Shown here one piece after another: positions 3,383 through 62,763 of a stretch of 63,201 nucleotides of DNA (positions within the stretch are counted from its first letter, which is position 1; each line of letters starts with the position of its first letter). Position numbers and translations under genes: made by a program. Source of the stretch: Rhizaria sp. SCN 62-66. Its lineage: Eukaryota. A model generated the notes under the pieces. That model worked only from the letters and a program-made list of their open reading frames with translations, ran no database searches and was not told where the DNA came from. Location: assembly GCA_001724265.1 (NCBI GenBank), contig MEDY01000144.1, positions 1 through 63,201 on the forward strand. The letters are read 5' to 3'.

Positions 3383-4123
3383 TTATTCCGGCTGGTCAGG
3401 ATCATACGCACTCTCAGTCACGGCCGCAGCCGCAGTGCCGACTTCAGTGACAGCATCAGACTCAGCGTCACCAGTAGCCGCGCTTGCACTCGCATTCGGG
3501 GCAATGGGGCGCTCCTTGGCGGAAAGTTTAGCCGCCTTCATTGCGGCCACAGCGCTGCGCTGCTCCTGCCTCGCCTTCGCCCACGCGTTGCCACTTGCGC
3601 CCACACTGCTCACGCCCACACTGCTGGCGCTCGCGCTCGCGTCTGACCCGCCGGCAGCTGTCGCACCGGCTCCATTGCCGCCACCAGTCTCAGCGCTGCT
3701 TGTGACTTGCGCCGGCTTCGCTTGGAACACGAAGCTGATGCGGGCGCGCTGGTCGGGCAAGCTGGCGTACGCTGCGTCAACCTCAGCTGCAGCCTTCTCG
3801 GCAGCCGCCTTGGCGCGCGCCGCCATCGCCTTGGTCGCCTCCAGGCTCGCATTTGCCTGCTTGTCGCCCGTACTTGCAGCGGCAGCGGCGGCGACGGCGG
3901 TGTCGGCAGCGGCCGCGGTCTCGGCGGCAGCAGCGGCCGCCTTGGCAGCCGCGTCCGCCTTGGCGGCGTCCGCGGTCGCCAGCGCGTCCTCGGTGGACCG
4001 GCGGCCGTGCGAGGCAAATAAGCGCAGTGGGAGACGCAGCGGCAGGCAGTGCAGCGGGGGCGGGACCAGGAGGGTCACCGCAGTGCCGGCTGCGTCACCG
4101 CTCTCCGCAGTGACAGTGTAATC

Positions 4124-4155
<32 letters not shown>

Positions 4156-7100
4156 CGTTAGAAGTGCTGCTTGTGGGGCGCAATGTGACTGTGATCACGA
4201 GAGGAGTCGTCATTAACGCCAGCGCAGCGGCCGCAGTCGCTTCTTCGCTCGGCAATAGCAGAGGGTCCTTCGTGGGGTGGCCCTCGCGCACGCGCTTGCG
4301 GCGGGCCACGCGACCAGACTTCGAGCCATCAGCAGCATCGCTCTTGTTCGCGGCGGTGCCGGAGTCGGAGTGGTCAGCGTCAGAGTCGGTGTCGGAGTCG
4401 GAATCGGGCTTAAGCACCTTATTCTTCTGCTTATTATCAGTACTGCCCGCGTTATTCGCACCGCTGCTCTCCGGGTCATTGAACCGGGGCACCGCGGCCG
4501 CGCGCTCAAGCATCTTGACGCTCGCGCCGAACACACTGAGCCCAGTCGCGGAACTGTCATTGGCGCTCTTCAGCGCTGTGTCGCGACGTGACCACGCCTG
4601 GAAGCCTTGGTTCGCTGCAAGAGATGTGACGTTGGTCACGAACGCAGCGCGCTGGGCCTCGGGCAAAGGGACGTGTTTCAGGGTCTCGAGTGTGAGCACA
4701 GTGGTAGTCAGCGGATACGCCGACAAGGACTTCCCGGATTCAGCCGCGCTACTAACAAGGGCAGTGCTGTTGCTCTCTGAATGTGACTGTGAGTATGCGA
4801 AAGGCGAGAGGTTGTACGACTTAAGACGCATCGCAGCGTCAATACCGCAAATAATGCGGCTAAACCTCAAAACACCCGCCTTAGTCTCAGCCACCTCGCA
4901 CACATTCACGTCCGCCTCAGATTCAACAGCGGCACTGGTGTTGCCGTGGTCCCCGCTGCCGAGTGCGACGCGGGAGCGCACGCGCGCGTTGTGCGACTGC
5001 AGCCGGTCGAGCGCGTCCTGTCCCGGCGGCAGCAGCACGACGCGGAGTCCGTACTCGCGGTGGTTGTAGCCAATGCCGAAGCCGTAGCGGCCACCGGCGC
5101 CGTAAACCGCGGCGGGCGAGCTGCTCGCGCCGGCATGGGCACTACGCGGGAGCGACTGTGAGCCGAACACATACTCGGGCGAGAACGCGGAGACCGTGTA
5201 CGGCACAGGCTTAGTGCCGCTGCTCACAGTCATCTTAGTCTCACTGCCCACTTCCTCGACCTTTGCCGACTCAGCCGCGGGGGCGCTTGCGACAACGCGG
5301 CGGAGAGAAGCGGGCTCCGGGGGAACAGTGCCGAAGTCTAAAGCGTGCAACTGGCGGGTCAGAGCGTTCTCGGCAAGAACGACGACGGATTTGATATGCT
5401 AAAATTTACAAGCAAGACAAACGGAAGGCATAGAGCAAAAGAATAAATAATATTTGTGAGAAAAAATTCGAAAAGTAGAAGAGATCGAGAATTTACGAAT
5501 CACAAAATTAGGTTCGACAGAGACATAGCTGTGCACGTACCTGCTTGTTCCGAACCTCGAAGCCGTCCCGGTGGAGGTCCTCGACGCCCCACGCAAACCA
5601 GGGCCCGACGATGACGTCGCCCCAGTACCCCGGCAGACTGTACCGGCCCAGCCCCGCGGCCGCGGCCACGGCGCGGGCCCCGATCGCGGGCCCGCCGCGC
5701 TTGCCCCCAGCCACTGTGGCAAGTCCGGCGTTCATGCGGGCGAAGCCGCCGCTGTACTGACCGTGCGCGCCGCCGCTGCCACCGGCCTCGCCGCTGCTGC
5801 CAGCGGCGGCCGCGGACTCGGCGGATGCCACTGTGCGCACGTGGGTGACGGAAGAGCCATCGAACAACCCGCGCTGCTGCTACTGCTGCTGCTGCGGGCC
5901 GCTGCCGCCGTTGTTCTGGGTCGAGTAGCGCGAGCGCGAAGCCGCGGTGGACACGTCGGTGGCCTCACGGCGCGAGATAAGCGTCGAGTTCGACCACACA
6001 AACGCGCCGCTGCCGGCCGGGACTGCGGCGGCAGCGCTGTTGAGCGCAATAGAGTTACCGCTATCGTGACTTGGCCCTGCACTCGCAGAGCCAGCGCTCG
6101 CAGGCGTAAGGGTGTTACACAGATTAGACTGAGAGAGCGGGTTCTGCTCGCCATTGCGCGCGGTCGCGGGGGTCTTGTTCGTCGGCTCGTCCTCATAGGC
6201 CTGCCCAGTCTCGCGCCAGCGCTTGTAGTTCCACCCGTGCACGACGGAACACGTGCCCTGCAGCCGGAACGTGAGGTCGAAGTCGAACAAGTTAAGCCGC
6301 GAGTCAAAGCGCTGACCCAGATACGCGCGGACACGCGTGTCGCGCAGCTTCGCAAGAGAGAGCACTGACGCGGAGGGCGCGAGGGACGACGACGGGGGCA
6401 GCGCAGCGGGGTTCGGGGTGAAGGGCGGAGGCGGGGGATAATACAGAGGGAAAGGCGAGACGACGAAGTCCGCCGCGTCATCAGCAACCTTGCTCTCAGA
6501 GCTGGCACTCGGAGCTGCCGTCGCGCTCGCGCTAGCGCTCGAGCTTGCGCTCGCGCTGGCGCCAGTCATAGCCTTGGGCTTGGCCACCGTGGTCTTCTTC
6601 GACTTCTTGCGCTTAACGTCACCAGCGGAACTGTCCTCTGTGATAAACAGGCCGAAGCGCGCCATCACACTGGCAGAGTCGCCGTCGTCGTCATCGTCTG
6701 CAGCAGCAACAGCCTGAGAAGCAGTCTTGTCAGAAACAGTGGTCGTAGCATCCGCAACAGACTTACCAGTGCTCTCAGATGTAGCAGCAGGTGTCGTCTT
6801 ATTCTTAGTGTTCACGCTGCCCACCGCGGCTGCACTGCTACCGTGGCCGTCATCCTTGATCGAGCCAGCGCGGCCGCCCTTCGCGTTCGCGAGCGTGGCG
6901 GCTTCAAGCGCAACAACCCGGCGCTGCCACTTGGCCCACCGGGCGCGCTCCTCGCGCATGCCCGCCGACACCATGCGCACAACTCCGGCCCGCCCCTCTT
7001 GGTGCCCGCCCGGCACATGTGCCGCCGCCGCGGGGCCTGTGGTTAAGTCGGGGTCGGCGGTGACGCTCTCGTCGCCGTTGCTCCCACTCAGGCTAGAGCT

Positions 7101-7988
7101 AATGTTCGTAGTGCCGCTGCCGCTGCTGCCGCCGCTGCCGCTGCCGCTGCTGTTGCTGCTGTTGACTGCGGTTGAGATGGTGCCCGCGGCGGCGCCGACC
7201 CAGTCCCTGATCACGGTCGCAAGGTCGTCCTTCTCGCGGCCCTTGAGCCAGGCAACGTCGACGAGCGGCGCGAGCGGGCCGGTCTCCTCCTCGACGAGCA
7301 GCAGCACACGTGGCACAGCGCGCGCGGCCAGGTAGTGGTACTGCGGCCACGTCAGCAGCGCGTTGCTGTGCAGCGCGAGCAGCAAGCGCGCGCGGACCGG
7401 CGCTGAGAGCGCCTCGTCGGTGGCGACCGTGAGCAGCAGGCAGTGGCGCGCCAGCCCCTCTAGAGAGGGCTCCGCGGTGTAGAGCGCAACGTGCTCACGG
7501 TCGGGCTCACGGGCGTCGCTAGGAGCACTCGTGATGGAGGCGCTTGCAGGGGCGATGGCGCGGCGCCAGCGCGGCAGCTGCGACAAGGTGTGAATGGTGT
7601 GGCGGGCGTCGCCAGCGTGGAGCTGGAGCATGTTCAGAGCTGCCGTGGGAGTAAACGAAGTTGCTGTGGAAGGCCCTGCGTTCGTGAGAGAAGAAGCTGA
7701 GGCTGCGCTGCTGCTGCAGTGCGACAAGAGCGCGGTCGCGGAGGACTTTGCTGCGCTCAGATCAACGGTGCCAGTGCTGGTATTGTTGGCTACCGCAGCC
7801 AGATGCGGGGCAAAGATCGCTGTGGCTGCAGCATTGAGTGTAGTGAGGTCGACTGAGGGATGCGTGAAGAGTGGCTGTGAGTCACCTCCGTCGACGTACA
7901 TCCGGTCCAGCAGGTCGACAGAAGGGGAAAAACCCCAGAAGTTGGGGTGCCCAATACCTTCAGCCTCAGACTGGCCGTTAGGGTTCAT
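3383..7988 (-). CDS. DNAAF3: Dynein axonemal assembly factor 3 (PF22-like), ~1487 aa with long low-complexity insertions; exons 7988-5541 and 5398-3383; in-frame TAG at 5882-5880
   Basis: Recalled DNAAF3-family motifs in order: GIGHPNFWGFSPSVDL; LEGLARHCLLL; LKGREKDDL; RVRAYLGQRFDSRLNLFDFDL; YKRWRETGQAY; and, after the TAG, GYWGDVIVGPWFAWGVE...RNKQ|HIKS; LETLKHV. Phase-0 intron 5540-5399 (GTACGT...TTTTAG). Ends in TAA. Confidence 0.85.
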
Positions 7989-8492
7989 TGCAGAAAGACT
8001 TTGACGTGCAAGATCTGACTAAGGGGTGGGGGAAACTGGAGATTGTAGGAGTGTCGAGAGCTCTGCAGAAAAATAGCCAGGAAACAGCATATTGTGAGAA
8101 CTTCAGGGATATAATAAAGTAAATAAGTACAAGCGTCACGATTGCTGATCATATCCATCAGATATCACTATTGACGATGATATGAGCTCTTTATACTCAT
8201 TTGTTGAACGACCAACATTCAAAGTTCGAACCGTTTTTCGTTTGAGCTTCGCGAAGGTGGAGTAGCTCACAGTCAGGAAAAGGCTAATATTCAAGTTGTT
8301 TTCAATCGTGATCGATTGTATTATTGCACCGTTCGTGCATTTATTAATACAGGGACTAAATCTGTTCCATATGAACTTGTTTTTGTTTCTTCATATCATT
8401 ATCATTATTCGCAAATCCTTCATTTCCAAGACTCAACTCTGAGCGCAAACCGCGATCTCAACCTAACATCAGCATCGCACGTAGCCGCAATC

Positions 8493-13962: not shown

Positions 13963-16900
13963 ATGGCGAGCGAAGCGCCGCCTATGGCCATGTCCGATGC
14001 GGACCTGCCTTCCAAGCACTTCGTTCCGACCCACGCGGCCGACGACGCAGTCGCATTCGAGCAGAAGCTCGAGCAGCCACTCAGCAATCAGCTGCCCGTC
14101 CAGCCCCAGCAGTAGCCCCCCACCCAGGAGGCGTTGCCCAAGGCTGCACCGGTTACGGGATTTGCGTTTGCCGCAGTTACGGGTTCTGTGCCGCCTGAGC
14201 TCCCGGCAACGGCGTCCTCTACCGCCACAGTCGCCACAGCTCCCGCATTCAGCGCCGTTGACCCCAACTCCGTCGCTGGCGCTGCCCCTGCGACGCCGAC
14301 GGCGGACGCTCATGTCAAGTATGAGTCAAGTGCCCACGCCGATGCTACGCCCACTGAAGCCGCGTCCTCGGCCGCAGACCTTGTCTCGCCGCAGTCGCCG
14401 CCGCAGGTTGAGACAGAGGCAGATGCAAACGTGGATGAGACGGCGCCCCAATCGTCCCCGCGAGGCGGCGGCCGCGGGCGCGGGCGTGGCCGTGGGCGCG
14501 GGCGCGGGCGCGGGCGTCCCCCGGCCGACGCGCGCGATGACGGCGGCGACGGCGACGGCAGCAGCCCGGCCGCGAGCGACTCGCACTACCAGGCCGCGGC
14601 GGCCTCTGCGGCGGCTGCGCGCGCGGCGGCGGCCGAGGAAGCCGCGCTTCGCGCCGTGCTACAGCCGTCGGAGCTGTACACGATCACGCCCAAGATGTTT
14701 CGCCACGGTACGCTGCCGGCCGTGATGCCGCTCGCGCTCGCCCGGCCCGTGGGTGCGCCCGAGCCGACCGCCGTGGCCGAGGCAGAGGCGCCCGCGCTCG
14801 CTGTGCCGGCCACGGTCGCGGGCGCGATCCCGCTCGTCGCGGTACTTGTCGCAAACGCGGTCGCCGCCACTGTCGCTGACCCGACGCTCTTCGCAGACGC
14901 CTCCTCGGGCAGTGCGGCGAGTGCCAGTGGCGAAGACAAGGACGGGGACGAGATTGACTGGCAGCGCGTTGCCGCCGCCTACGGACGTGCTGCTGCTGCT
15001 TCGTCGCAAGCCCGCGCATCCCTTGCTGCTGGTGCCACCACGGACGCGGACGCAGACGAGCTGAAGACGCTGTTTCCACCCAGCCTGACCCCGCGCGAGT
15101 GCAAACGCGTCTGGCGCGCTGCCGCATACGTTGCAGTGCCTAAGCTGCAGACGAACACGCTTTTCACGACTGCGGACGCGGCCTATACGCCCCGGTACAA
15201 GCCCCTGCGGCATTCGCCGTCACAATCGTCATCTCAGCCGCAGTTTCAGTCGCAGTCTCAGCGCTTGCAACGACCGTGCCAGTGTGTGACGGGCATGCGG
15301 ACGCTGCCGCTGACTGCGGGCGCAAGTGCGTTCGCGATGCGCGAGTCCTCCTCGGGGCCTTGTCTGCTCACACCTGGTGCGCTGCCCTGGGGCGCCGGCG
15401 CCGCCGAGGCCGCGGCCGCGGAGGTCGAGTACGCCAACATGGCCGCCCACGCGCGGCGCGTGAACTATGTCAAGAAGCGCAACATCTACAACGTCATTGG
15501 TGGCAACAAAAGCGGCGGTGCCAGTAGCGCGCGCGGCGCCGCAAGTCAGAACGGCGCGGTTAGTGCAGCCGAAAGCAGCCCTTTGAGCGCGAACGGTGAT
15601 GCTTTGAGTGCGAGCGCTACGGCCGCAGCTGTTGACTCGCATGCTGTTAGTGCCAGTTCTCCGCATGCAACGGGCAGTGCCAGTGGCTACGGTGATGGGA
15701 TCGTCGTGAAGACGACGGCGTACAGCACTGACGCCGTGTTTGACTTTAACTTTGCGGAAGCCAAATCTCTTCAATCACTTGTCAAGCCTGCGGCGACGAT
15801 TGACAGTACACTGGCGACAACAAACAAGAAAGGTGGCAATACCACGTGCTCGCTTTGTGGCTGCCTTCGCACTGGCGGCGCTGCCAGCACGACTGCGGCA
15901 ATGACCGACGACGCCGCGGCGAAAGACAACGCCGGCCACGACGGCAGCGAGAGTGACGGCGACCTTTCTGACTACGAGGCCCTGCTCCCCGAATACACGC
16001 CCCCGGAGGCGCTCGAGCCGCACCTGCGCGCCCCGCTCGAAGACGCGGACCCCACGCCAGACAAGCCGGACGCATGCGCCCTCGGCGCGGCGACCACGCT
16101 CACGGGCGCGAGCAGCAGCACCGTGCGCGCGCAGGTGACGAACCCCTTCACGCCGCTGGGCTTCGCCACACTGACACACGCGGCGCCGTCGCCGCTGGCG
16201 TACCTGCCGCGCGCCTCCGTGGACATGTTCCTGCTCGACCTGCAGTCGCGGCCGACGGTGCCCGACCGCATCGCCGCGTGGACCGACGCGGGCTCTGCCG
16301 CGGCGGCAACGAATCATACGGCGGCGCAATCTCCTCCTTCTGATGCCGCTGCAGCTGCTGCGGGTCACAGCGAAAGCTGTCGCAGCGGAAACAGCACTGG
16401 GCGCACTCCGGCGGCAGGCCGGTCCGCGGCCGCGGCGACCGCGCGCGCGATGTGGGTCGTTGCCCGCGCGGCCGCCAACGGCGACAACAGGCTCCCGCAG
16501 GCGCTGGTCAATGCGCTGTCGACGCACAGCAACAGCAGCAGCAACAGCAAACCCGCGGTTAAGAGTGCGGATGGCGCGAGCCCCAACGCTGAGTCAGCCG
16601 GCGCAAGCTCCGGCGCTTGCACCAGTGCAGGCGTTGATGCGAGCGAAAGCGTGAATGCGAGTGCTAGTGATGCTGTGGTCGGTACTGTGGATCTTGCCGA
16701 CGTGGCGCCCGCCGCCCCCGCCACGCTGCCGCCGCTGACTACGCTGCCCATCCCTTTGTTCGGCACGAGCAGTAACAACAATAAGGCCAGCACCACTCAC
16801 GCCGGTCCGAAGTCCAGTGCGAGTGCGAGTTCTGCCAGCTCTGCGACGGAGGGTGACGAAGACGTGACTGTGAGCAATGTCGTGAACATGATGAACTCGC

Positions 16901-19900
16901 TGTCACTGACGCTGCTGGCCAAGGCGGCGCGGAATACCAAACACGCGCTTGTGAACAAGACGCCAAGTTGTATGTCTGACGATGTTGCAGACGCTAAAAA
17001 CACCAGCAACGCCGCCGCAAGTAGAAGCAACAAAAAACCTTGTGCGACAAATGATATGAGTGGCTGTATCACAAGCGGCAGCGGCAGCACGAGTATCGCT
17101 GCCTCCTCCGCGGCCGCGATCAAGTCTACCTTCGCCCTTGGCCACGCCCGCATGCGCATGCAACTTGCACACAACGCATCCAGCGTTCCTTCCCCTGCGT
17201 TGTTTGAGGCCGGCGACGTAAAGTTAGGTCGCACCTCGAAGGCCGCGCGGGTGCTCACTGCGGCCGCGCCAGCCCTGGCAGGCGTGTGGAAGAAAGCAGC
17301 ATCTGCTGCTGCTGCTGCGGCTGCAAATACGACTGATTGTGCAACGAACAACAACAGCAACAACAGCAATGTTTGCAAATCTAGCACGGATACGAGCACT
17401 CGGGACTCAAGTGCCAGCGCCAGCGATTCTACAAGCACAGTGCTGCCTGGCGGTATGACGTGGAAGCAAGCGACGCGTGAACTTCTCTCGAGTGTGAACA
17501 CCACATCGTACAAGGCTCAAGCCGCGCTGTCGTTTCTGCTCGCTCTCGAGCAGGGCCACGTGGCTGCCCACGCTGTGCTCAAGCTTCACCGCATCATCGT
17601 GGCAAAGGAGCGCGCACACCGAGCATCGTTGCGGCGCAACGTCGATCACGCTGTATTGACTGGTGACAAGGCGCACCATGCGCTGCAGCTGGACGAGAAT
17701 GCTTCAATCGAGGCCGCTGAGGCCGCGCTTGAAGCGATCTTAGCCACGCCCAATTTGCCATCGGTCGCTAGTCCTGTTGTCCTCTCGCTCGCGGGCTACA
17801 ACAGCGCCTCACACCCCGGTGAAGATGGCAGATTCACCGCAGACTCGTGGCCGGCGCCGCCGCCACACCGCAAATCCCTCTCGCCCGCCGCCGCGGAGAA
17901 ATCCGCCGTGCAAACGCTGCGGCGCGTTGTGACGGCGGCCGCCGCGGGGCAGGGGCGCTGGCAGGTGGCGCAGCGCGCCGCGTTGCAGGTGCATCTCACT
18001 GCGCTCGAGACAGTGGGCAATGCGGCACACGGCCACTTCGAGGGCCTCGGGGACGAGGCTACGTCTCGGTGCCCGCCGAAGGACGCGCTGTATGCGCTGC
18101 GGCAGCAATTGGCCGATGTGGGGCGCAGCACGAACGCGCTTGCCTCTGTCATGTCGAACCATGCTGTTAACACGAAACCGTACAGTTTGAGCACCATCGG
18201 GTTGAATGGGATTGAGACCGTGGTGACCGCGAGCACCGGGACGAAGGACGTTCTAAGCGTGATGAAGACGGCGCAGTTGGCGATGCATCAACACACGTGC
18301 GGCGATCACACCGCCGCAGCTATCGATGACATGCCATGCGGAGATAATACCGCTGTTCTCAGGTCAGGCAGTGCCGGTGCCAGTGATAATACTGATGGCA
18401 CCGCAAAAAACACGAACTCTGCTGTGAACCACCACTCCGGGGTGGCTGACGAAGAGTCAAAGTCTCTCGCCTCACCCGTGCTATCGAAACGTGATGCTAT
18501 GGTGACCGCAGCCCTTGTCATGGGTGCTGCTGCCGCCCCTCTTGCCCCCAGTTTCAACAAGAACAACAAACTGGGCGTGACTGCGAACGGCTCTGGCAAC
18601 ATGGAATCCGCCCTCGCCGGCAACATCCCCATTCTCCCCATGCTCGAGTGGCAGCGCCAGTGTGCGCTCGCCCGCTGGCAGCACGCGCTCGCGCTGGAGG
18701 CGCGTACGCAGGCCGTCAACATGGCAGTGCGCCGCCGCATGCAAGCCGTGACGACGGCGACTATAGCCACCGCCACGCGCAACGCGCTGACCGCGCAGGC
18801 CCAGGCACACGCACACGCCCAAGCGCAGGCTGAGGCGCGGCTGCAGGCAATGGCGCTTGCGCGCAAGCAGGCGCAGGCACAGGCTGATGCTGAGGCCGCA
18901 GCGGCAGCGGCAGCAACTGTTGCTGCCAAGCTCGAAGTTGACGCCGCGAATGCTGCGCTTGAAAGCACAGACGTTGCTGCTGTCGATGCTGATGCTTCTG
19001 GTGTTGCTGCTGGTGTCGATATCAAGCCCAAGACCGAAGCCATGACCGACGACATCGAGGTCACAGCGGTTGCGGTCTCCGCCAACTCAGTTGCAGGCCC
19101 GTCTCTGAGTGAGATCACGGTCAAGTCTGAGCCCGGGACTGCGCCTGCCCACAGCAGTGCTGTTGCTACTCCTATCAGCAGCATCGCTCCTGCCTCTAGC
19201 TCTCGCCGCACCTCTGCTGGCGGCAGCAACAGCCGCATCAAGTCGGAGCCCCTCAGCACGCACGCCAGCGGCATTGGCGCCAACTCCGCCCCGGCGCCGT
19301 CACCACAGGCTTCACCTGCGCCGCCCGCGCCGGCCCCGCTTCACCCCGGCGCGAGCGAGCTGGCCGCGCAGATCTGGTTCGAGGCCAACGCCGAGGTCGG
19401 GCCCGTGCCCGCGCTGCGCCTGCCGCCGCGGCCCGACCTCGCCAAGCTCTCCACGGGCGCGGCGGAGGTCGCCGTCGCGCACGCAGTCGCCACAGAAACG
19501 GCCGTCGCGCTGCCCGACGCCGACAACCTTTGCGCGTCGCAGCCGCCGCAGCAGAAGCGCGTGGAAGGCAAGCGGGGTAAGACGATCAAGACCGACAACA
19601 ACAACGGCGGCGGATCTCGGTCTACCTCTCCCGTGCGGCGCAACGCCTCCGCGTCCGCATCTATGCGCAGCACGCCCGTCAAGAAGGGAAAAGCGACTGT
19701 CGATGCGTCGGGTGGCCGGGGCAAGGGCAAGGGCGCTGCGCGCAGCGGCAAGCGGGGCAAGGCTGAGTCTGCTCCGAAGACTGCGGCTGACGCTGCTCAG
19801 GGCCGCGGCAGGGGTAACAAGCGGGGCCGCGTCGCTGCTGGTATGCAGGCGGCAGGCGACAGCACCAACGCTGCTGAGGATGGTGATGGCGCTGCTGGCG

Positions 19901-22900
19901 GAGCCAGCGACAGTGACGACGACAGCGCTGACGACGATGGCGACATCACCGACGGCAACAGTGGTGACGACGACGATAGCAGTGTCAGTGGTAATGACAG
20001 CGACGGTGATAACGCCAAGGAGCCGTCACTCCCGCCCAAGTACAGTAACATGGCGCGTTCTCAGTCGAAGTACCCCTCAAAGCCCAACCCTTCTCTCCCC
20101 ACTTTCGACCTCTATTGCTTGCCTCTTGAGGACACGCTTGCCACATATCCTCCCGTTCCCGGTACGTAACCACTCCAACGTAAACTATCTCATTTGAAAC
20201 ATCACATCTGATCTCGGACTTTGCATTTGATCTCATAATATCTCTTTATTACTGCGTATTGTCGTTGCTCTCCTGCATTACTTTCCTTCAGGTGGCTTGT
20301 ATTTCTCGCGCCTACGCCGCGCCGCGGGTCTGAGACTCTCGGCGACCTACCCCGCTGCTGCGCTCCCACCCCCGGCCACCGCGAGCCTGTCCCGCGCCGC
20401 CCTCACGCTTGCTTCCGCGCGCCTGTTGCCGGCGCTCGGCGGCCGTCTGCGCGCGCCGGCCCATGCCTCGCTTGCGCTCCCACTGCCCGTTGCCGCCCCG
20501 CTGGCGCCCACGACGGCGCTTCCGGCCCCTCTGGCCACAGCGCACCTCCGCGCGGTCCCGCTCGCGGCCTCGAACTCGGCGCTCTCCGCGATCGCCGCCA
20601 CGGCCGCCGGCGGCGCTGGGTCCGCATTCCAGGGCGTGGGCCCCGGCGGCGGCGCGGGCGCCCTGGGCGGCGCCACCGCGTTGTCTTGGTCCGTCTCGGC
20701 GCCCGCGTCATCGGTGTCGTCGGCCGCGCAGCTGGCGACGGCGGCGGCGACGGCGGCGGCGACCGCCCCCGCGACGGCCGTCGCCGCCGTGTCGGCGCTC
20801 CACGACGCGATGGCCATGCTCAACAGCATGGCCTCGCCCCAGACCACGATAGCCGCCAACGGCGCGGCCTCTGCGCTCACGGGTGCGGGCGCAGGCACGC
20901 AGAGCTCTGGTGCGCCGACAGTGACGCAGGTTATCTACGGCGGTGGCGTCGCCACGCCCGTCGCCATGGCGCCATACACCCCGCAAATGTACAACTCCGG
21001 ACCCAAAGCTACCTCAGGCAACATCGCCGCCGTGGAGGAAGCCGCCGCGGCCAACGCAGTTGTTGACAGCGGTCGTATCGGCGTCACTGGCTTGTGGGAC
21101 GGCATCGCGCCGCCGCCGCAGGTCGCGGCCGGAGCCTCCGCAGCGGCCGCGACCAACGCCGACGTGGCCAAGATGAGCGCAGCGGCGCTGGCGGCGTTGC
21201 CGTCAGTCGCCGTCGCCGCGATCATGCCGCCCGTGCTCACGCTCGCGCTCGGCGAAACCGGTGGTGGTGCGAAAAAGAGCTCGAACAAGAGCGAGAGGAA
21301 GAATGGCGAAGATGACACTGATAACGAGGGCGAAGACGATGAAGCTCTTTGGATGGCGCGCTTTGCTGCCGCAACGGACTATCTCGCGTCGCTCGACGAG
21401 GCGTGGGACTGCGTCAAGCTCAGCCGCATGCTCCTCTGCCTCCGTCTACGTCTTCCGACTACAGCGGCGGCCGCGGCGGCGAGCTCGAGCCTGCTGCTGC
21501 ACCGGCCGGACGCGCCGTCGCTGGCGCCGTCTCCGCACGCGCTCATGCTCGCCCCCGCGCCCCAGTCGAGCTCGTCCGTCTCGGTCGCCGGCACAGGCTG
21601 CGTCGCCACCTCGAGCGCGGGCTGCGTGCTGCTCACGTCCTCGCTCGTGCCTTTCTCGGCCACGCCGTTCGCGTCCGTGTCGACGGGCCCACTGGGGCTC
21701 TACAGCTCATCGCTCGCCCACGCGGCCGCCTCAGCGCGCGGCGCTGGCGCGGCCACGGGCGTCACCAGCGAAGCGCGCCCGATTCCGCCGGCAGTCACGG
21801 CGCGGCACCGCGGCTGGGTCGCCACGGCGCACGCGGACGCCCTCGCTGCGGCCGCGCTGAGCGTCTCGGCCGGCGAGGTCGCAAACATGCTCCGGCTGCA
21901 GAGCGCTGCCGGCGCGGCGGGCGCGGCGGTGGCGGCGGCGGCCTCTGCGGCCGCGGCCGCCGCGGTGACCGGAACGGCCCGCACCCGCGGCGGCGGCAGC
22001 GTCGACAGTTACGGCCACACGATGACGGACTCTGAGCACGTGCACGGCGCGGCGCAGCACGGAGGCAGCTTTGCCGCCGATGCACCCGCTCCGTCCGCGG
22101 TCGTTGTGCCGGACCTCACGACACTGCTAATGGCGCAGGGAGCGAGTCCAGCGCAGCTGCAGTTCAACGTGCGGCAGCCGGCCGTCACGGGCGCAACGCT
22201 GCGCGGCGGCAGCAACATGTACTACCCGTCGGTGGTCGCTGCAAGCTGCGGCAGCAGCAGCGCGGCCTTGACATCGGCAGTGACGACTACCACAACGACG
22301 ACCACGACAACGACGACGACAACGACCTCATCGCCTGCATCTCGTGTGTCGCACTCTTACTCCCAGTCACAGTCGCAGACGCAGTCCATGCAGTGCGACA
22401 TCTCCGCCGGCAACCCGGCCGCGTCTCTCTCGGTCACATCCGGCCTCGTTGGCCTCGGCCTAGGTGTCGGCGCCGGCATCGCCGTCCCGCCTTGTCTCGC
22501 TCTCTCGGCCGCGTCGGCCAACGACCCCCCCGCCGCGGCCGCTGCCGCTGCAATTGCCGCCGCTCTGCCAGCGCCGTTCGCTTGCTCTGGCGGACCGAAC
22601 AGCGCCAGCGGCGTCGCTGCCCCGGGGAGCGCGGGCGCTCTCAGCAGCGGCGTCACGTCAGTGGACATGTCGCTCCACGCGCAGCTCACTGCCGTGTCTG
22701 GCGCGGCCCCGTTCGTGCCTCTCGTCGGCCCGCACTTGCACTCACACTCACATGCGAGCCAGCACGCGGCCGCTTCTGCGGCTGCTGCTGCTGCTGCGGC
22801 CACCAACACCGCCAACGCTGCGGCCATCAACGCGGCCAACGTCGCCGTGTCTGCCGCGACGACCGCGACGACTGCCGCGAGCGTGCGCGTGGTGCTCGGC

Positions 22901-23431
22901 TGGGGCGACAGCGTGGCCTCCGCTGTGGGCTTCGGCTCCGGCGTCAACGCGATGCCGACCAACGCGTCCTTTAACGCCGCGGCCGGCGCAGGCGTGAGCG
23001 GCGCGGCTCCCGGCAGCGGCATGGCGCACTTCACATCAGTCAAGGTGCCGCCCAAGCGGGCCAGGAAGCCCGCGCAGCGCCAGACGCCGGCGGTGCCAGC
23101 AGCAAAGAAGACCCCCGCTGCCGGCAGGAAGCCGCTTGTGGGTGGTGTGCTGCAGGTAGGGGGCGCGGCCAGCGATGCCGCCCCGAAGAAGAGGAACACG
23201 ATCGCATCTGCAGCGGCCCTCAAGGACAGTGCGGTGCTGTCCGCGTTGGTGCCCAAGGTGAAGACTGTGCGCATGTCGAAGCACATGGAGAGCCGCGCAA
23301 TGATGGACGAACACGTTTCAGCGCAACAAACGCCGCTGGCGTTAGAGCAACCACCGGTGGTCGTTGTTAGTATTGTTAGAAACGACAACGATGTGGCTCA
23401 AACTCCTGTCGCTGAGGGTGAGAACGCTTAA
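13963..23431 (+). CDS. Very large low-complexity putative nuclear protein (~3112 aa) with an RG/AT-hook-like repeat and a possible split Myb/SANT-like domain; exons 13963-20161 and 20292-23431; in-frame TAG at 14113-14115
   Basis: ATG at 13963 is in frame with the 14134 ORF through one TAG. Phase-1 intron 20162-20291 (GTACGT...CCTTCAG) joins the two long ORFs. Motifs RGRGRGRGRGRP and IDWQRV...PRECKRVWRAAAY, plus basic NLS-like clusters. Ends in TAA. Confidence 0.75.
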
Positions 23432-33600: not shown

Positions 33601-34495
33601 TTTCGGTAGGGCAGAAGTTGACCATGTACTTGTTGTACATGATCATCGAGGTCGAGAACGCGAAGAGCAAAACGGTGACCACGAGCGTGTACGTCATCGT
33701 GGTGCTGTCGCCGCTGATCCAGTCGGATGTCGCCGTCGCAGGCGCGGCGTCGGACACCGCGGTCTCGACGCTCGCGACTGCGGTGCTGTTGCTGCTGCCG
33801 CTGGGGTCAGTCAGGGCAGTGGAAGACTTGTTCGAAGGACTAATGGAGACCAGGGCGACCTCGCTTGAGCCACCCTTCGCCTTGCCGCTGGTACCCTTGG
33901 CAGAGCCCTTCTGCTGCTTCTGCTGCATCTGCTGTTGCTGCTGATGCTGCGGCTGCTGCGTTCCAGGGGGGTTGGTGTTATGCAAGTAGCTCACAACACC
34001 ACCGTTCTGCTGCTGCTGCTGCTGCTGCGCGTGCTTGTTCGTGCTATAGTTGCTGTAATCAGCGTCGGCGTCAGCGTCAGCGTCAGCGTCGGTAGGCAGC
34101 GCTGTTGCCTTGATGCCGTCGCGCCGCTGGCCGCGTGCCAGACGCGGGTGCGTAGTGCGCACGCCTTTGCCCGCGTTACGGCCGCCATAGCCGCGAGCAC
34201 GCTCGTCGATGCCGTCGCAGTCGTCGTCATCGTCGTTGTCATCGTCGTTGTAGGCGCTGTTGATCTTATTCTTGTTGTCAAGAGCGTTCTTGTTGTTGCG
34301 GTAGTGAGACGAAACGGCTGCACTGTAATCGTCGCCATCGTCGTCATCGGCGCCATCGTAGAACGCCGGCGGGCCGTTTGCCGCGTTAATGCTGTGCGCG
34401 GTGCCTGCGGCGCTCAAGTTGGCGCGTGATGAAGCAGACGCTGCCGCGGCCGCGGAGCCGCCGGAGGCGCGCGGGGGACCATAGAAGGACGACAT
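30643..34495 (-). CDS. SLC35/triose-phosphate-translocator (DMT) family transporter, SLC35C2-like, ~1239 aa if TAG is read through; exons 34495-33297 and 33163-30643; in-frame TAG at 31461-31459
   Basis: TPT-type motifs FSTSMIMYNKY, FPFPLFV, GLANMSFLFL, VTSALTLCVVSTVKTVVVIIVGLVIF and multiple TM helices. Phase-2 intron 33296-33164 (GTACGT...CACAG). The frame continues 271 codons past the TAG to TAA at 30643. Confidence 0.82.
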
Positions 34496-50756: not shown

Positions 50757-53700
50757 TTAAATTGAGTTCCAAAACATGTCTTTCTCCACCTCACGGGGTA
50801 CAATGGCGTTACCACCATCGTCGCCACCATCAAGGCCGTTACCGCGACTGTGGTTGTTGTGCCCAAACCCACTGCGCGACAGGTTCACGCCGGCAACGCC
50901 GGAGTTGGCACGGCTACTCGCAGCGGCAGGCTTGTGTGCAATCGCACGCTGTTGCGCGTTCAGTACTCGCGCCAGCTCCATCTTGACCTGAACTTCGCTC
51001 AGCGGGGCCCCGAACGCGCTGCTCTCGGGCCCGTCGTCGCCGCCCGCCGCCGCCGCCCCCGCCGCCGCGCCCCCCGGCCCCGCGCCCCGCCCCAGCCCCA
51101 GCGTCTGGGCCAGAATCGCGCCCGCAGAGGTCGCAGAGGACGCGGAGCCGCGGCCAGACTCGCGCTCGGCGTCGGCCACGGCGGCCTCGGCCACCGCGGC
51201 GGCTACGGCAGCAGCGGCGGCGGCCGCGGCCACGGCGGCCGGAGTCGCAGACGGGTCGGCGGCCACTGCCGCGGCGTCGGCCGCGGCAGACTCAGCTTCA
51301 GCAACCGCGGCTGCGGCTGTGGCGTCAAGATCAAGAACGCCCGCAGTTTGCCCGCGACGACTTTCATTCAAAGCGAATGGGTTCTGAGAAAGCTTCATAA
51401 GTTTGGCAGCGTCGATGTGTTTGTGGGCAGCACCGACACCGATGCTGTTCACATCGTACTTCACACCGCTGGTGCTGCTCGCGTTGCTCGTGCCGCCGCT
51501 GCGGTAGTGGCCGAACGCTGAGGGGGTCGGCACTGTTGGCTTCAGTGACGTAGGCGCAGGGCACTCACCGTCTTCGTCGTCGACGTCTGTGGGCACGCCG
51601 CGCGGTGTAAACGTGAAGTAGCTGTTCGCGACGGTGGTCGCAGCATTCACTGCAACGGGGGCAACGCTTGTGTTCCTCTCAGAGACAATACTGCCCTGAG
51701 CAGCAGTGGCAGCACCAGCGCTCGCACCCGCTGCCGTCGCTCCTGCAGATGATGCGACTGCCGCCGCCGCGGTCGCTTTGCCGTTGCTTTTGCCACTCTT
51801 GGTGGCAGCTGCTGTGCCACGTGCACTCAGAGGCGCATGCGGCTTATGTTGCTGCTGAGATTGCAATTGCGACTGTGAGTCTTGCTCCGACTTAGCATCA
51901 CCGCTCCGCGACTGTGAGCGCGAGAATTGACCACTCACGCGCCCCTTGCCACCGCCAGACTCGAGCGGCAGCGCGATCGACGGCAGGTGCTCGAACGAAG
52001 GAAAACCGTGCTCGTCGTAAGTTAAGCCGCCGTGCCCGCCCATGGACGAGTAATGCGGCTTGTGGCGCGACGGCGAGCGCGAGTGCGGGCGCGAGGGCGA
52101 CTGCGACGGGAGAACTGACTGCGACTGCGAGCGCAAGTGCATCGGGGAGCCGTTGCGCGGCGCAGGCAGCGGCGCGCGCTGTCCTTTAGCGTTCGCGGCA
52201 CGAACGTTCGCAGGATTACTCGGATCAAACGATTTGCGCGCGTCGTTCACAGGGACGTTACTGGGCATCCTTGAGTGCGCGACTGAGGGCATCGCGCTGT
52301 GCGTGGCAGTAGGCAGCGCAGATGAGACCGCACTGTCAGCGCCGCCGACTTTGGCGACGACAAGGCGTTCGGGGCGGCGACCCAGACCGACGCCGCGCCC
52401 AGCAGCAGTAGCTGCGCTGTTGGAGCTCAAAGCGGCAGGAGGGTTTGCGCCGTAGACTCCTACCGCATCATGGTCAGCGTCACGATCATCGACGTTCTTG
52501 GTTGAGCTGGTAAAGTCTTCGGCCGACTCGGGGACGCGTGGGTAGCGCATGGACGGGGAGCTGAACGACTTTGTGACAGTCCAGTAGAGGGAGTCTTTTG
52601 CTTCACCCTGGTCATCAATGCTGCCCATCAGCGCATCGTCGAGCACGTCCTTAGCGCTGTTACCAGCGGCTCCAGCATTGATGTTCTTGTTAGCAGCCTT
52701 GTTGTCAACTGCGCTGCCAGTCGTGGTGCCCTGCGCCGTCGACTGTTGCGCTTGCGTGAACGATGGCGCCCGCGAACCCAGTCCCTGCAGCCGCGCCTGT
52801 TGCGCCTGCGCCTGCGCGTGCGCCTGCGCTCGGTGCATCAGAGGCGCCAGCAACCTGTCGGGTGAGCGAGAGAGCGACTGTAATAAGGCTTCCAGCTGCA
52901 GCTGCGAGCCAAGATCCGAAGCGGAGCTGACGCGACTCAGCGCGCCCGCCTTCGAATCCAAGTACTGCGCCATGTAGGCCCTTACAGCATCGCTGGCAGC
53001 AGCGGCGGCGGCACTCGCGTCATGCGACAGCGGCAGCACGCCTGCCCCCACACCGGTGACGGTGACGGGCGACTGCAACAGCAGCTGTGTCCGCGGCTGC
53101 GAGGGTGACAGGCTTGGTGACACCACCGCGCTATTGTCTCCACTGGACGCTTGCGCTTGTGTTTGTGACAGCAACCGCGATTGCCAACGGGTTTGCGCTT
53201 GTAAGTCGCTGAGCGGCAAGTTGAGCGCGTACAGCGGCCGCGCTTTGCAGGCGCCAACACAGACGCCCGGGCACACTCCCAGGCACCGAGTCTTGTGCTG
53301 TTGCTGTTGTTGTTGTTGAGGGAGTTGCTGCTGAAGCTCATGCTCTTGCGGCAGTGCGAGGAGCTGGTGTGCACCGGAAGTGTTCAGACGAGAGTTAAGC
53401 GCCCCGAAGTCGTCTTCGGTGCCAGCCAAAAGAGCGTTGCCAGCGCCGCTGCGGGCAACATTAAAGCTACTACTGCTGCCGCTGCTGCTGTTGTTACTGT
53501 TACTGAAGCCGTCGCCGCTGCTGTTGGCGACGGCGGGCAAAAACGAGTCTGCAGCGGCGGCTATGCCCGTAAGCAGCTGCGCCTTGCTCGCCTGCGCGGC
53601 CAGCGCCCGCGCGCGCGCCCCCGTCTGCGCAGCCGTGACGTCGACCGAGGTGGCCGCGGCGAGCGCGGAGGCGGGGACGACGCGATGCGCAGCGAACTCG

Positions 53701-54806
53701 CTCACAGCGCAGTCGCGCAAGACGGCCGGCAGCACCGCCTCAACGCTCGTGCTGTCGGAACGAGGACTAGCGGAGGGCATGCTGTTCGGAACCCGAGCGG
53801 GTGTGGCGCTCGTCGCCGCTGAACGTGCAGAGCTTGTTTCTGTCGGAGTCGAAGTTCCAGTTGCAGCAGTTCTCGCAGAAATTGTGGGCGTGAAGAGCTC
53901 GTCTGCAAAGGTCGAGCTGCCTCTCTGCTCAAACTTCTGCAACGCCGCGGTTGCCGCCATCAGCGCGTTGTTGGCGCGCTTCATGGCGAGCGCAGTCTGC
54001 TTCTTGTTCGGCGTCAATGCGGCAGCTGCAGCCGCAGCAGACGATGTCGCTGATGGCGTCGCAGTTGGACTCGCAGCGCTCGGGGCACCGGCGGCCGCGG
54101 CCGTCGCCAAGTCAGGGCCATCACCGGCACTTGCTGTGCCAGCAGCAGCAGTCATCATCGCTGCAAGCGCGGCTCTATTGGCGGCTTTGTTGGCGTTGCT
54201 GAGCGCCCGGGCCGCGAGCCGCTGGTCCTCGTACAGGTGCGAGTGTGCGCGCGCGTGGGCGGCGGCAAGGTGGCGCGCAACGGCGGCTTCGGGTGCGTCG
54301 CCGGGCGCGTCGGAGAAGACAGAGGCGAGCAGGGCCGCGCGGTCGTTGGGCGCGAGCGCGTTGAGGGACGAGGACGAGAGACTGGATGTAGCGGCGGTGG
54401 GGGAGGAATATGGGCTTCGACTCGGGCTTTGTGAAGGTGCAAATGGTGCGCCACTGGAATATGGCTGCTGCATCGGCTGGTGGGAGTTATAGTTGGAGCT
54501 GTTGGCGTTACTGGGGGTGGCGGGCGTGAATGCAGCAAGACGGGATGAGTGCTACATCGTGTCAAGGGTGCTCGAGCCGACTGTAGACAGCACAGGCGAG
54601 GGCGATAGCCTCAGCACATGCGGAGACGGCTCGCAGTAACCAACTCGGGCAAGCGGGTCCCTTGATACGGGAAGCGTTGCGGACTGCGAGGGCGAATGGA
54701 ACGGGTCTCGCGAAGGACTCATCTGGGCCTGCATTGCCCGGGCTCGGTGCTCGAAGAGAGTGAAGTAGTCCGCATCAATAGAGTCGTTGCTTGTCGATGT
54801 TGACAT
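50757..54806 (-). CDS. Hypothetical Ser/Ala/Gln-rich, probably disordered protein (~1349 aa if TAG is read through); in-frame TAG at 54554-54552
   Basis: ATG at 54806 lies at the boundary with the AT-rich upstream spacer. The 84-codon ORF, the TAG and 26 further sense codons run in frame into the 1238-aa ORF. Ends in TAA. Under the standard code the start would be 54473. Confidence 0.72.
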
Positions 54807-57594: not shown

Positions 57595-57628
<34 letters not shown>

Positions 57629-60790: not shown

Positions 60791-61269
60791 CTGCTCGCAG
60801 CTGAAGCACAGCTTACACGATGTATTTTTGTATTTATATCAACCGATCTACATCTTCGCCAATTTATGCATTCCTACTGTTTTCCCCGTTTCCTTTGTTT
60901 GTTTATGTGTTCGTAAATCCGCTGACTTGAATTGGTTCTAGTCACACAATTACATGCACAGTGTCCTTTCAACCAAGACACAAGCTCTGCCTGTTTCCAC
61001 GACTATGAAATATTTGTAATAATAATACAATACTCATTTTAACACACGTAATATAATGATGCAAATTTGCGATCCTCTATTGCACTTCGTTGATCATCAA
61101 CACATGTCGTACCCAGATTTATATTGAGATACATGTACGACACATTTCAAGTCAAAACACACACCACTTTAAGATCACCCAGTTAGGGAAAATAAATCAC
61201 ACGACGCAACAACTAATTCAATCTTAACCAGAGCCACTAACCTTGTCCGAATCAAGTCAAGTTTGCCAC

Positions 61270-62763
61270 TTACGCGTACTTAGCGAGGAACTCCTTGTGG
61301 AACTTGGCGAGCGCGGCGTTGACGTTGTCGATGTCGGCCTCGGAGGGCAGAATCGTGGTGCGGAAGTGGAAGGTATTCTTCTTCTGCACGAAGCCAGTGC
61401 CGGGCACGACGCAGATGCCCGTGGCATCAAGCATCGCAAGGCAGTAGAACGTGTCGGCAGGCTTGCCCGCGGCCTTGGCTGCGGCGATGGCCTTCTCGGG
61501 GAGCGTGATCTGGGGGAAAGCGTAAAGCGCGCCCTGCACGGGCTGGCACGACACGCCCTCGAGCTCGTTGAGCGCCTTGGCGACGGTGGCGGCGCGGCGC
61601 TTGAGCGAGTCGAGGATCGCGCTCTTCTCGGCCTCGTACACGGGGCCGGAGGGGTCGGAGGGCTTCGGCGGGTTGACCATGAGGCCAACGGTGAGCTGGC
61701 CCGTAACGTTGGAGCAGAGTGAGATGGAGGAGAGCTTGTAGAGCTGGGCGAGGATGTCCTCGGGGAAGTTGGTGAGGTGGAAGTAGCCGCCGCGCTGGCC
61801 GCACTCGCCGATGAAGCCCTTGGACACCGAGTGGAAGGACACGAGCGGGACGGTCGACTTGGTGTCCTTGACGACCTTGCGGAAGGACGTGAAGGGCACG
61901 GTGGAGTAGACGTTGGTCTGGTAGACCTCGTCGGCGAGCAGCACGAGGTTGCGCGCGGCGCAGAAGTCGACGACGGCCTTGATGTTCTCCTCTGACAGAC
62001 ACTGGCCCGTGGGGTTGCCGGGGTTGATGATGACGATGGCGCGCACCGTGGTGCCCGCGGCCACAGCGGCGTCGTAGGAGCGCTCAAGCTCGGGGAGGTC
62101 CATGGACCAGCCGTTCTCCTCGTTGAGGTAGTAGCCCACGAGCTGGCCCTGGAGCAGCGTCATGGACGCGCTGTAGAGCGGATACTGCGGGATGGGGCAC
62201 ATGACGCCGTCTGTGGGGGACGAGATGAGCGTCTGGAGGAGCATCTTGACACCCGAGGACGCACCGTCGGTGATGAAGATGTTCTCGGGGTCCGTCTTGT
62301 GGCCGTCGCGGTCAGCGATGAAGGCCGCGACCTCGTCGCGGATGAAGCTCAGGCCCTTGGAGTGGGTGTAAGCGCCCGTGCCGGAGATCTTGCTCAGGTA
62401 GCTCTTGGCGCGTGCGATGGCGTCAGTGGGGAACGCAGCGGCGGCCGCGGTGTTGGACATGAGCTCGGGGTAGTGGCAGAGCGAGATAACCTGGCGCAGG
62501 AACGTCAGGGGCTTCTGGCCCAGCTCGTGCGGGTTGCCGATGTTGCACGCGACAATCTTCTTGAAGGGAAGCGAGTCGGGGTTCGCGGCGAGCTTCTGGC
62601 GGTAACCATCAGCCTTGATAACGAGCTCACCACGGACGGCGTACTGCGCGTCCTTGACGTGAGGATTGATCGTGTCAAGACTCATCTTGGGGGCGGCGCT
62701 GGACATGAGGCGGGCAGTGTTGAGGGTGGTCGACTTCGACAGGGCGGAAAGGCCGCGGAGCAT
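61270..62763 (-). CDS. Alanine aminotransferase (GPT/ALT family, PLP-dependent class I), 497 aa, with a probable mitochondrial presequence
   Basis: YAVRGEL, CNIGNP, GAYTHSKG, PIPQYPLYSA, IINPGNPTG, LLADEVYQ, PLP-lysine motif SFHSVSKG, GECGQRGGY, VVPGTGF, HFRTTILP. The N-terminus MLRGLSALSKSTTLNTARLMSS is basic, hydroxylated and free of acidic residues. Ends in TAA. Confidence 0.95.
   Translation of the reverse strand: MLRGLSALSKSTTLNTARLMSSAAPKMSLDTINPHVKDAQYAVRGELVIKADGYRQKLAANPDSLPFKKIVACNIGNPHELGQKPLTFLRQVISLCHYPELMSNTAAAAAFPTDAIARAKSYLSKISGTGAYTHSKGLSFIRDEVAAFIADRDGHKTDPENIFITDGASSGVKMLLQTLISSPTDGVMCPIPQYPLYSASMTLLQGQLVGYYLNEENGWSMDLPELERSYDAAVAAGTTVRAIVIINPGNPTGQCLSEENIKAVVDFCAARNLVLLADEVYQTNVYSTVPFTSFRKVVKDTKSTVPLVSFHSVSKGFIGECGQRGGYFHLTNFPEDILAQLYKLSSISLCSNVTGQLTVGLMVNPPKPSDPSGPVYEAEKSAILDSLKRRAATVAKALNELEGVSCQPVQGALYAFPQITLPEKAIAAAKAAGKPADTFYCLAMLDATGICVVPGTGFVQKKNTFHFRTTILPSEADIDNVNAALAKFHKEFLAKYA

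Follow-up and report, generated by a model that had tools for sequence, protein, structure and literature searches.

A probable reassignment of UAG to a rare glutamine codon in a flagellum-bearing eukaryote from engineered water systems

Four of the 16 genes modelled in a 63,201-nucleotide contig – the whole stretch of DNA analysed here, referred to below as the window – carry an in-frame TAG. The reading that we consider probable, though well short of assured, is that UAG is translated in this organism, most likely as a rare glutamine codon, and that UAA and UGA terminate translation. UAG would then no longer act as a terminator, a putative CUA-anticodon tRNA descended from tRNA-Gln would decode it, and eRF1 would have lost the ability to recognize it.

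The window is best explained as a nuclear contig of a eukaryote that bears a flagellum and belongs to the communities of bioreactors and wastewater. It encodes axonemal and dynein genes (as identified with Pfam), the organism has been detected in engineered water systems in several studies, and the DNA runs that contain the window are X1-X4. In a tree of alanine aminotransferase the window falls within a clade of 12 environmental sequences, which stands apart from named fungi, amoebozoans, oomycetes, chlorarachniophytes, cryptophytes, and plants; a GTDB scan with the same protein returned bacterial genes only, at 24-48% identity. The spliced models comprise 16 genes and 15,194 codons within the window. 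The seven modelled introns are 119-193 nt long and all are AT-rich with a GTACGT donor, the genome being GC-rich at about 62%, and GC upstream of the modelled start ATGs (other than ATG 14695, discussed below) is 0.38-0.59. No tRNA genes were found in a tRNA scan of the 63,201-nt window, and an Rfam scan of it gave no match.

TAA and TGA are best explained as the terminators, with TAA preferred. The 16 modelled terminators comprise 12 TAA and four TGA, and none is TAG, as an earlier note made from this sequence had also reported; the absence of TAG beside four TGA has P ~0.06 if the two are equally likely, in what is a small sample, and one of the 16 (42598) may sit in an intron. GC after the terminators is 0.34-0.43 for 15 of them, with 0.49 after TGA 2310, which is read as intronic, and beyond 17 terminator-like TAA/TGA the frame stays open for just 0-51 codons. 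When stops were sought at transitions from coding to AT-rich sequence, 12 TAA, four TGA, and a single TAG were recovered, the last located inside the intron at 49384-49576.

Internal stops within the 15,194 modelled codons are of one kind only: four TAG, no TAA, and no TGA. Since model building extended each frame as far as a TAA or TGA, the absence of these two, to which the earlier note had also pointed, is partly ensured by construction; an independent check is provided by the three-exon DEAH helicase and the two-exon models, which close in frame. All four TAGs lie where that note had placed them (5882-5880, 14113-14115, 31461-31459, and 54554-54552), at a frequency of 0.26 per 1000 codons or about 0.8% of glutamine codons. 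They are followed by 123, 2017, 271, and 1264 open codons, respectively, in sequence with a GC of 0.57-0.73, and its report that no splice signal accompanies them holds, as no GTAnGT donor occurs in the 600 nt upstream of any. Its description of coding-like sequence on both sides is borne out at 5882, 14113, and 31461, but not at 54554, where the upstream signal is weak. When 202 stop codons with 50 stop-free codons on either side were scored for same-frame coding, TAG 5882 ranked first, TAG 31461 second, and TAG 14113 seventh for two-sided signal, and TAG 54554 failed the scan. Further TAGs with coding-like flanks (24515, 11055, 58974, 21702, 45993, 47760, and 52187) were set aside as antisense to modelled genes – at 47760, which was examined closely, the gene is on the minus strand – and TGA 59210 was rejected as an internal stop, as it falls in the intron at 59167-59304.

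The strongest case is that of the DNAAF3-like gene (3383..7988, minus strand; 1,487 codons with a TAA end), in which exon 1 (5541-7988) is joined to exon 2 (3383-5398) across an intron at 5399-5540 (GTACGT...TTTTAG). The model contains Pfam domains DUF4470 (E 6.7e-8) and DUF4471 (E 2.2e-24), both past their curated cut-offs, which together we take to make up the DNAAF3 (dynein axonemal assembly factor 3) family, and it matches 321 proteins at E <= 0.001 in a representative protein library. The TAG (5880..5882, minus strand) is codon 703 and sits inside a (CAG)4-TAG-(CAG)2 run. Positions 26-87 of DUF4471 match ahead of it and positions 111-146 match past it in the same frame, and the post-TAG piece by itself matches DUF4471 with an E of 1.4e-4. 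A homologue of 825 aa (P0128) is collinear with the model, aligning at q543-599 before codon 703 and at q767-850 after it; the second block spans residues 816/817, the predicted splice junction, and further blocks extend to q1468. The start at ATG 7988 is consistent with the N-termini of P0128 and of a second protein (P0127), and in P0130, a relative with 70% identity, the match to the sequence past the TAG has indels that keep the frame and an intron that opens with the same GTACGT. Coding scores are similar on the two sides (z 6.0 before and z 5.2 after the TAG), and in a second haplotype (run X4) six codons are changed at 5592-5646, five of them synonymously, by a hand-derived comparison. 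With homology on both sides and a location in a real exon, the TAG must be passed if the protein is to be made, and these comparisons are decisive in placing it within what reads as genuine coding sequence.

Other records of this locus are of several kinds. A DNA contig from another study (run X3) covering 4165-6411, including TAG 5880, is identical to the window, and a scan of metagenomes using the DNAAF3 alignment beyond the TAG identified one locus (L001, corresponding to window 2430-5659), which ends before the TAG. Because both are identical to the window they may derive from the same clone. An RNA contig at 5369-5819 adjoins the TAG and retains the intron, and the entries in the protein database are split into pieces of 702 aa and 110 aa.

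An explanation that we regard as improbable is that the genetic code here is the standard one and that the four TAGs have separate, commonplace origins. DNAAF3 would then be a recent null allele, arising by a CAG to TAG change in the repeat in a clone for which the gene is dispensable. The identity of the window, X3, and L001 makes a single clone possible, but the gene shows no other damage over its 1,487 codons. Codon usage also has to be considered: with the codons used in the window, TAG is the outcome of about 65%, or some two-thirds, of the nonsense changes that take one step, and a pattern of TAG only is therefore not significant by itself (P 0.17-0.31 under random nonsense changes). The earlier note had relied on that pattern as an argument for a changed code, and we find it to be weak. 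Nonetheless, the standard code requires four coincidences among 16 genes, and TAG ends no modelled gene.

The standard code would also make the TAGs of genes g4/5 and g14 the ends of short upstream ORFs within 5′ leaders, and both are indeed near the 5′ end, at codons 51 and 85. Gene g4/5 (13963..23431, plus strand; 3,112 codons with a TAA end) has exons at 13963-20161 and 20292-23431 separated by an intron at 20162-20291 (GTACGT...TTCAG) and contains no Pfam domains. Its TAG (14113..14115, plus strand), in the context CAG CAG TAG CCC, is preceded by sequence with a coding score of z 4.0 and followed by 185 coding-like codons (z 6.5) before the next ATG at 14695, at odds with a leader ORF. GC upstream of ATG 13963 is 0.51, which is typical of starts here, compared to 0.77 upstream of the alternative ATG 14695. 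Moreover, a contig of run X4 (12819-14292), which represents a different strain, keeps TAG 14113 and has two SNPs elsewhere, which also counts against the standard code; in a poly(A) RNA run (X5) depth is zero in the bin containing the TAG. The same-frame coding potential, the GC-rich sequence, and the long open frame that follows support TAG 14113 as an in-frame coding triplet.

At g14 (50757..54806, minus strand), a low-complexity gene of 1,350 codons with a TAA end and no match in Pfam, the TAG (54552..54554, minus strand; ACG ATG TAG CAC) is codon 85 counted from ATG 54806. Upstream of it the coding signal is low, at -0.10 bits per codon (z 2.6), in keeping with a leader, and GC is 0.42 upstream of ATG 54806, compared to ~0.60 for the downstream alternative start. 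TAG 54552 is thus ambiguous as an in-frame codon, because translation of g14 could truly begin at the following ATG, which is 27 codons downstream.

For the SLC35/TPT gene (30643..34495, minus strand), composed of exons at 33297-34495 and 30643-33163 with an intron at 33164-33296 (GTACGT...CACAG), the standard code would make the TAG the real stop, with either a second cistron or a frame left open by chance beyond it. This TAG (31459..31461, minus strand; CGC CGC TAG ATG AAC) is in the C-terminal tail, 41 residues past the end of the transporter domain, and an ATG comes immediately next; neither feature was mentioned in the earlier note. The tail that follows has no relatives, its matches being its own 271-aa ORF and two distant TPT-domain proteins, and it is stored in the protein database as a separate 271-aa protein, as made by the gene caller. 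Given the distance from the domain, the adjacent ATG, and a tail without relatives, the TAG could be a true stop. However, the 271 open codons beyond it score 0.40 bits per codon (z 9.7, compared to z 5.5 before the TAG), GC over the 150 nt past it is 0.57, and it lacks the AT-rich spacer of modelled gene ends, which instead begins at the TAA terminator of this gene. TAG 31459 is supported as in-frame and coding by its same-frame coding potential, the GC-rich sequence, and the long open frame after it. No homologues were found for the TAG sites at 14113, 31459, and 54552 using Pfam, with relatives searched for the SLC35 tail.

We give little credence to a different possibility, that UAG is still a stop and is efficiently read through by a near-cognate tRNA such as tRNA-Gln(CUG), with no need for a dedicated suppressor tRNA, in an ambiguous or context-dependent code. 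The rarity of in-frame TAG and its confinement to non-conserved segments would fit, as would the C that follows three of the four TAGs, a C after a stop codon being a leaky context. However, the downstream codons are unlike at each site (CAG CAG, CCC CCC, ATG AAC, and CAC TCA, at DNAAF3, g4/5, SLC35, and g14, respectively), no downstream readthrough motif is shared by the four, and none of the local RNA folds at these TAGs is significant. None of the 16 genes uses TAG as its terminator, and with the DNAAF3 TAG placed at 47% of the length, anything short of near-complete bypass would sacrifice most of the product.

Correction of the TAGs by A-to-I mRNA editing (UAG to UGG, encoding tryptophan), as in filamentous ascomycetes, appears very unlikely. 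The A of the DNAAF3 TAG is in a predicted hairpin loop, but this is true of just one of the four TAGs, and its fold falls short of significance (z -1.77; 9 of 200 shuffles equal it). Tryptophan within a glutamine run would be unnatural, and this organism carries axonemal and dynein genes, whereas ascomycetes, to our knowledge, are without flagella. Restorative editing of premature stops acts preferentially on UAG, and in Fusarium graminearum it restores dozens of 'pseudogenes' (PMC10776026, PMC11156358), and the systems are alike in having a genomic in-frame TAG and a full-length protein that is thought to be made; in the sections of those papers drawn on here, though, editing acts at the RNA level, yields tryptophan, is stage-specific, affects well under 1% of genes, and is known only from non-flagellate fungi, and the 71 pseudogenes of the whole Fusarium genome are proportionately far fewer than four of 16 genes. 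Finally, that the TAGs are assembly errors, or are in unconventional GC-rich introns and never reach the ribosome, appears equally unlikely: all four are in low-complexity inserts or tails missing from homologues and none of the listed RNA contigs crosses one, but independent assemblies from other studies are in agreement at 5880 (X3) and 14113 (X4), the inserts are in frame with coding-like codon usage and without TAA or TGA, P0130 conserves part of the DNAAF3 insert as protein with in-frame indels, and all seven modelled introns are AT-rich with GTACGT donors.

If UAG is translated, the amino acid that it specifies is most likely glutamine. Not one TAG occupies a conserved column that can be aligned, all four being in lineage-specific inserts or tails, and for this reason the assignment draws on context at two sites out of four. 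A single transition separates TAG from CAG, the glutamine codon used most, and TAG twice interrupts CAG runs, from which we infer glutamine. The glutamine-run context described in the earlier note is present at 5882 and 14113, and the other two contexts are RR*MN and TM*HS. Its proposal that UAG is a glutamine sense codon is partly supported, with respect to translation through the homology across the DNAAF3 TAG, and with respect to glutamine by context.

There are precedents for reassignment of UAG only, with UAA as the preferred stop (PMC11687900, PMC5304391, in the portions cited here). UAG encodes glutamine, with UAA and UGA as stops, in Iotanema spirale of the Fornicata (PMC5304391) and in the ciliates Hartmannula sinica and Trochilia petrani (PMC11687900). 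In Iotanema, a T32G change in eRF1 is reported at the residues concerned with the third stop-codon base (PMC5304391). As far as these accounts extend, our organism resembles all three in having in-frame UAG only, UAA and UGA stops with UAA preferred (12 of 16 here), and glutamine as the likely meaning. [quoted passage not shown] It also differs from the known UAG-to-glutamine systems in its GC-rich genome, 119-193-nt introns, and long contig. The rhizarian exLh, as presented in the part of PMC5304391 cited, is likewise a non-ciliate with a UAG-only reassignment, and its 56 UAA and 15 UGA terminators are in a ratio near to the 12 and four here. However, UAG in exLh encodes leucine at conserved leucine columns and is found in frame 384 times in 71 genes, whereas the contexts here favour glutamine and the density of UAG is far lower.

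The sparseness of UAG and its restriction to non-conserved segments fit a young or weakly decoded reassigned codon. We suggest, tentatively and with slightly more doubt than confidence, that this is an early-stage, independent UAG-to-glutamine reassignment in an undescribed non-ciliate lineage, which, if true, would be a snapshot of codon capture. Gene ends would already have lost UAG, UAA being the dominant terminator in spite of a GC3 of 0.7-0.9, and UAG would only now be re-emerging as a sense codon through CAG-to-TAG transitions in tolerant low-complexity segments.

Split meanings of UAG and UAA are rare, and in the sections cited are described in Iotanema, one rhizarian, and a few ciliate lineages (PMC5304391, PMC11687900). 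Such codes bear on how UAG and UAA are tied to each other by tRNA wobble and eRF1. At a practical level, gene callers that use the standard code truncate the proteins of this organism at TAG. If the proposed reading is true, a further UAG-only code outside the ciliates would provide an independent data point, and the very low usage of UAG could show a reassignment soon after its onset.

The window is a eukaryotic nuclear contig in which A+T-rich spacers lie between long reading frames rich in G+C (GC3 0.64-0.91), themselves interrupted by short A+T-rich introns, with G+C of 50-71% in 3-kb bins across its 63,201 bases. Among Logan contigs, ten rows from six studies – one row possibly the source itself – contain all or part of it, in bioreactor, wastewater, activated-sludge and microbial-fuel-cell runs. 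The recognizable genes encode a DNAAF3-like protein (Pfam DUF4470 and DUF4471), an SLC35/TPT transporter, a three-exon DEAH helicase, a dynein light intermediate chain, a Rieske protein and an alanine aminotransferase (61270-62766 (-)), and the others encode long low-complexity proteins without a Pfam match; low-complexity inserts in the window's proteins are very large. Scans of the window found no tRNA genes and no Rfam matches.

All seven modelled introns – 5540-5399 (-) in DNAAF3, 20162-20291 (+), 33296-33164 (-), 37070-37188 (+), 37480-37626 (+), 49384-49576 (+) and 59167-59304 (+) – have an invariant GTACGT donor, are 119-193 nt long, and contain 30-39% G+C versus 60-75% in exons. Multi-exon models using these introns close in frame with no internal TAA or TGA, and the DEAH helicase among them is an independent test of the splice sites. 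A relative, P0130, shares this donor at the matching point of DNAAF3. This donor and the A+T-rich introns form a signature that could serve for binning the organism's contigs.

The 16 gene models (15,194 codons) contain four internal TAGs and no internal TAA or TGA, and terminate in TAA (12) or TGA (4) but never in TAG, one terminator (42598) being possibly intronic; all four TAG positions are as the earlier note had claimed. Its further argument, that only TAG and never TAA or TGA occurs in frame, is not statistically significant (P 0.17-0.31 for three or four TAGs): with 417 CAG, 89 TGG, 16 CGA and 85 CAA codons, 65-68% of one-step nonsense changes yield TAG. TAA ends 12 of the 16 genes despite the high GC3, and stop-codon choice appears, in this small sample of 16 terminators, to track the A+T-rich spacers and not coding-sequence composition.

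The four TAGs are unlike true gene ends in both the following G+C and the distance to the next in-frame stop. G+C is 0.34-0.43 in the 150 nt after the modelled terminators, and the next in-frame stop lies 0-51 codons beyond 17 terminator-like stops of a wider set, whereas the frame stays open for 123, 2017, 271 and 1264 codons past the TAGs at 5882, 14113, 31461 and 54554, and the G+C that follows the first three is 0.57-0.73 (54554 failed that filter). A scan for stops flanked by 50 stop-free codons on each side returned 202 (120 TGA, 51 TAG and 31 TAA); TAG 54554 did not pass it, and by same-frame coding score on both sides TAGs 5882 and 31461 rank as the top two and 14113 as seventh. The other high-scoring stops are antisense to modelled genes, except TGA 59210, which falls in an intron.

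The TAG in DNAAF3 (5882-5880 (-), codon 703 of 1,487) is decisively placed inside coding sequence. Pfam DUF4471 matches in the same frame before it (positions 26-87) and after it (111-146), and the 123-residue piece that follows the TAG matches DUF4471 by itself (E 1.4e-4). A search with exon 1, translated with TAG as Q, against 1.84 billion representatives found 321 relatives at E <= 0.001. The relative P0128, of 825 residues against the 1,487 codons of the window's gene, is collinear with residues 4-264 and 543-599 before the TAG and 767-850 after it, across the predicted exon junction 816/817, with further blocks up to residue 1468. P0130, 70% identical, matches the part after the TAG with two in-frame indels and then enters 'VR', the translated GTACGT donor. 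The TAG itself lies within (CAG)4-TAG-(CAG)2, in a 167-residue insert (region 5690-6190 (-)) that is absent from P0128 and separates two conserved blocks only 10 residues apart in that protein. In the protein database DNAAF3 is split at the TAG into pieces of 702 and 110 aa. A further TAG (8019-8021 (-)) is in frame 10 codons 5′ of the start ATG at 7988; it lies in an A+T-rich leader, upstream of a start supported by homology, and was not treated as a coding triplet.

The remaining sites vary in clarity, and the earlier claim that sequence is coding-like on both sides of every TAG stands for DNAAF3, g4/5 (13963-23431 (+)) and SLC35 (30643-34495 (-)), and is doubtful for g14 (50757-54806 (-)). 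In g4/5 the TAG (14113-14115 (+)) is codon 51 of 3,112, with a coding score of z 4.0 before it and z 6.5 over the 185 codons up to the following ATG (14695); like other starts, that at 13963 coincides with an A+T-to-G+C transition (upstream G+C 0.51, versus 0.77 at 14695). The g4/5 protein has no Pfam match, and contains an (RG)n run and long Ala/Ser tracts. In SLC35 the TAG (31461-31459 (-)) lies 41 residues past the end of the TPT domain and directly before an ATG, so that a true stop is conceivable there. Of all segments tested, the in-frame coding signal is strongest in the 271 codons beyond (0.40 bits per codon, z 9.7). The sequence directly after the TAG is no A+T-rich spacer, the frame closes at a TAA right where the spacer starts, and no relatives of the tail turned up in database searches. 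A long Ala/Gly/Ser/Asp-rich stretch lies 5′ of the transporter segment, the gene's sole Pfam match. The g14 site (54554-54552 (-)) is ambiguous: the TAG is codon 85, the upstream signal is weak (z 2.6), and the next ATG is 27 codons downstream.

Contigs of four other runs, compared over 3001-23000, reported no alternative base at TAG 5880 or 14113. A 2,282-nt DNA contig from a different study (X3) matches 4165-6411 with zero differences, spanning the DNAAF3 TAG and intron, and one from a second DNA run (X4) covers 12819-14292 and keeps TAG 14113 with two differences elsewhere. X4, a 2025 run, also contains a coexisting second haplotype or strain, at 6245-6261 and at 5592-5646; in the latter, downstream of the DNAAF3 TAG, six codons are altered, five synonymously (worked by hand), which fits selection on the reading frame. 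The sole locus from a metagenome scan (L001) is identical to 2430-5659 and ends short of the TAG; it and X3 may stem from the same clone as the window. A poly(A) run (X5) has depth near zero in three spacer-dominated bins, versus 3-7 in DNA runs, and is thus mostly RNA. None of the RNA contigs listed for 3001-23000 crosses a TAG, and one (5369-5819) retains the DNAAF3 intron, which could reflect pre-mRNA, DNA carry-over or poor splicing.

A change of code is the best explanation, although 63 kb is not proof: UAG is probably translated, with Gln its most likely meaning. Because no TAG falls in a conserved column, that meaning is drawn from the CAG runs around two of the TAGs and from precedent. 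Code change is favoured since the standard code would need four things together – a null allele in a DNAAF3 otherwise intact over 1,487 codons, an 816-nt coding-like same-frame 3′ region without a spacer after the SLC35 TAG, a coding-like g4 leader of ~700 nt without a start codon, and no TAG among 16 gene ends – and too high a rate of nonsense alleles, three or four per 16 genes being far above expectation for a free-living organism. A mix of ordinary explanations under the standard code is therefore unlikely, even though the restriction to TAG could plausibly arise by chance, the terminators are few, and the X3, L001 and window sequences are possibly one clone. Readthrough of UAG without full reassignment is more doubtful still, as the four sites have no common downstream motif. 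RNA editing is very improbable: the kind of hairpin that characterizes A-to-I editing in fungi surrounds one of the four TAGs, a result that is not significant. An artefact or unconventional introns are just as improbable.

UAG-only reassignment is described for a rhizarian, as Leu, and for Iotanema spirale, as Gln (PMC5304391), and for phyllopharyngean ciliates, as Leu once and as Gln twice, with UAA the preferred stop (PMC11687900); in one ciliate UAA and UAG differ in meaning (PMC10553269). No further reports were found beyond these three, which is not proof of absence. Like known UAG-only codes, the window has TAG in frame and TAA well above TGA as terminator. However, UAG occurs in four of its 16 genes (0.26 per 1000 codons), in contrast to 78-91% of genes in UAG-reassigned ciliates (PMC11687900), a rarity that weakens the case for a code change, and the organism also differs from the known UAG-only cases. 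In an alanine aminotransferase tree (36 rows chosen from 120 proteins listed) the window belongs to a well-supported clade that comprises 12 unnamed environmental sequences and is separate from every named group in the tree, its 11 partners being 57-85% identical to it (closest among the matches listed, 85%). By this one protein, the organism appears to belong to a clade with no named sequenced member among the search matches; the tree leaves the lineage unplaced, and independence from known UAG reassignments is likely. If confirmed, the finding would add to the known UAG-only codes one in which the reassigned codon is unusually sparse, and a useful example of an early stage.
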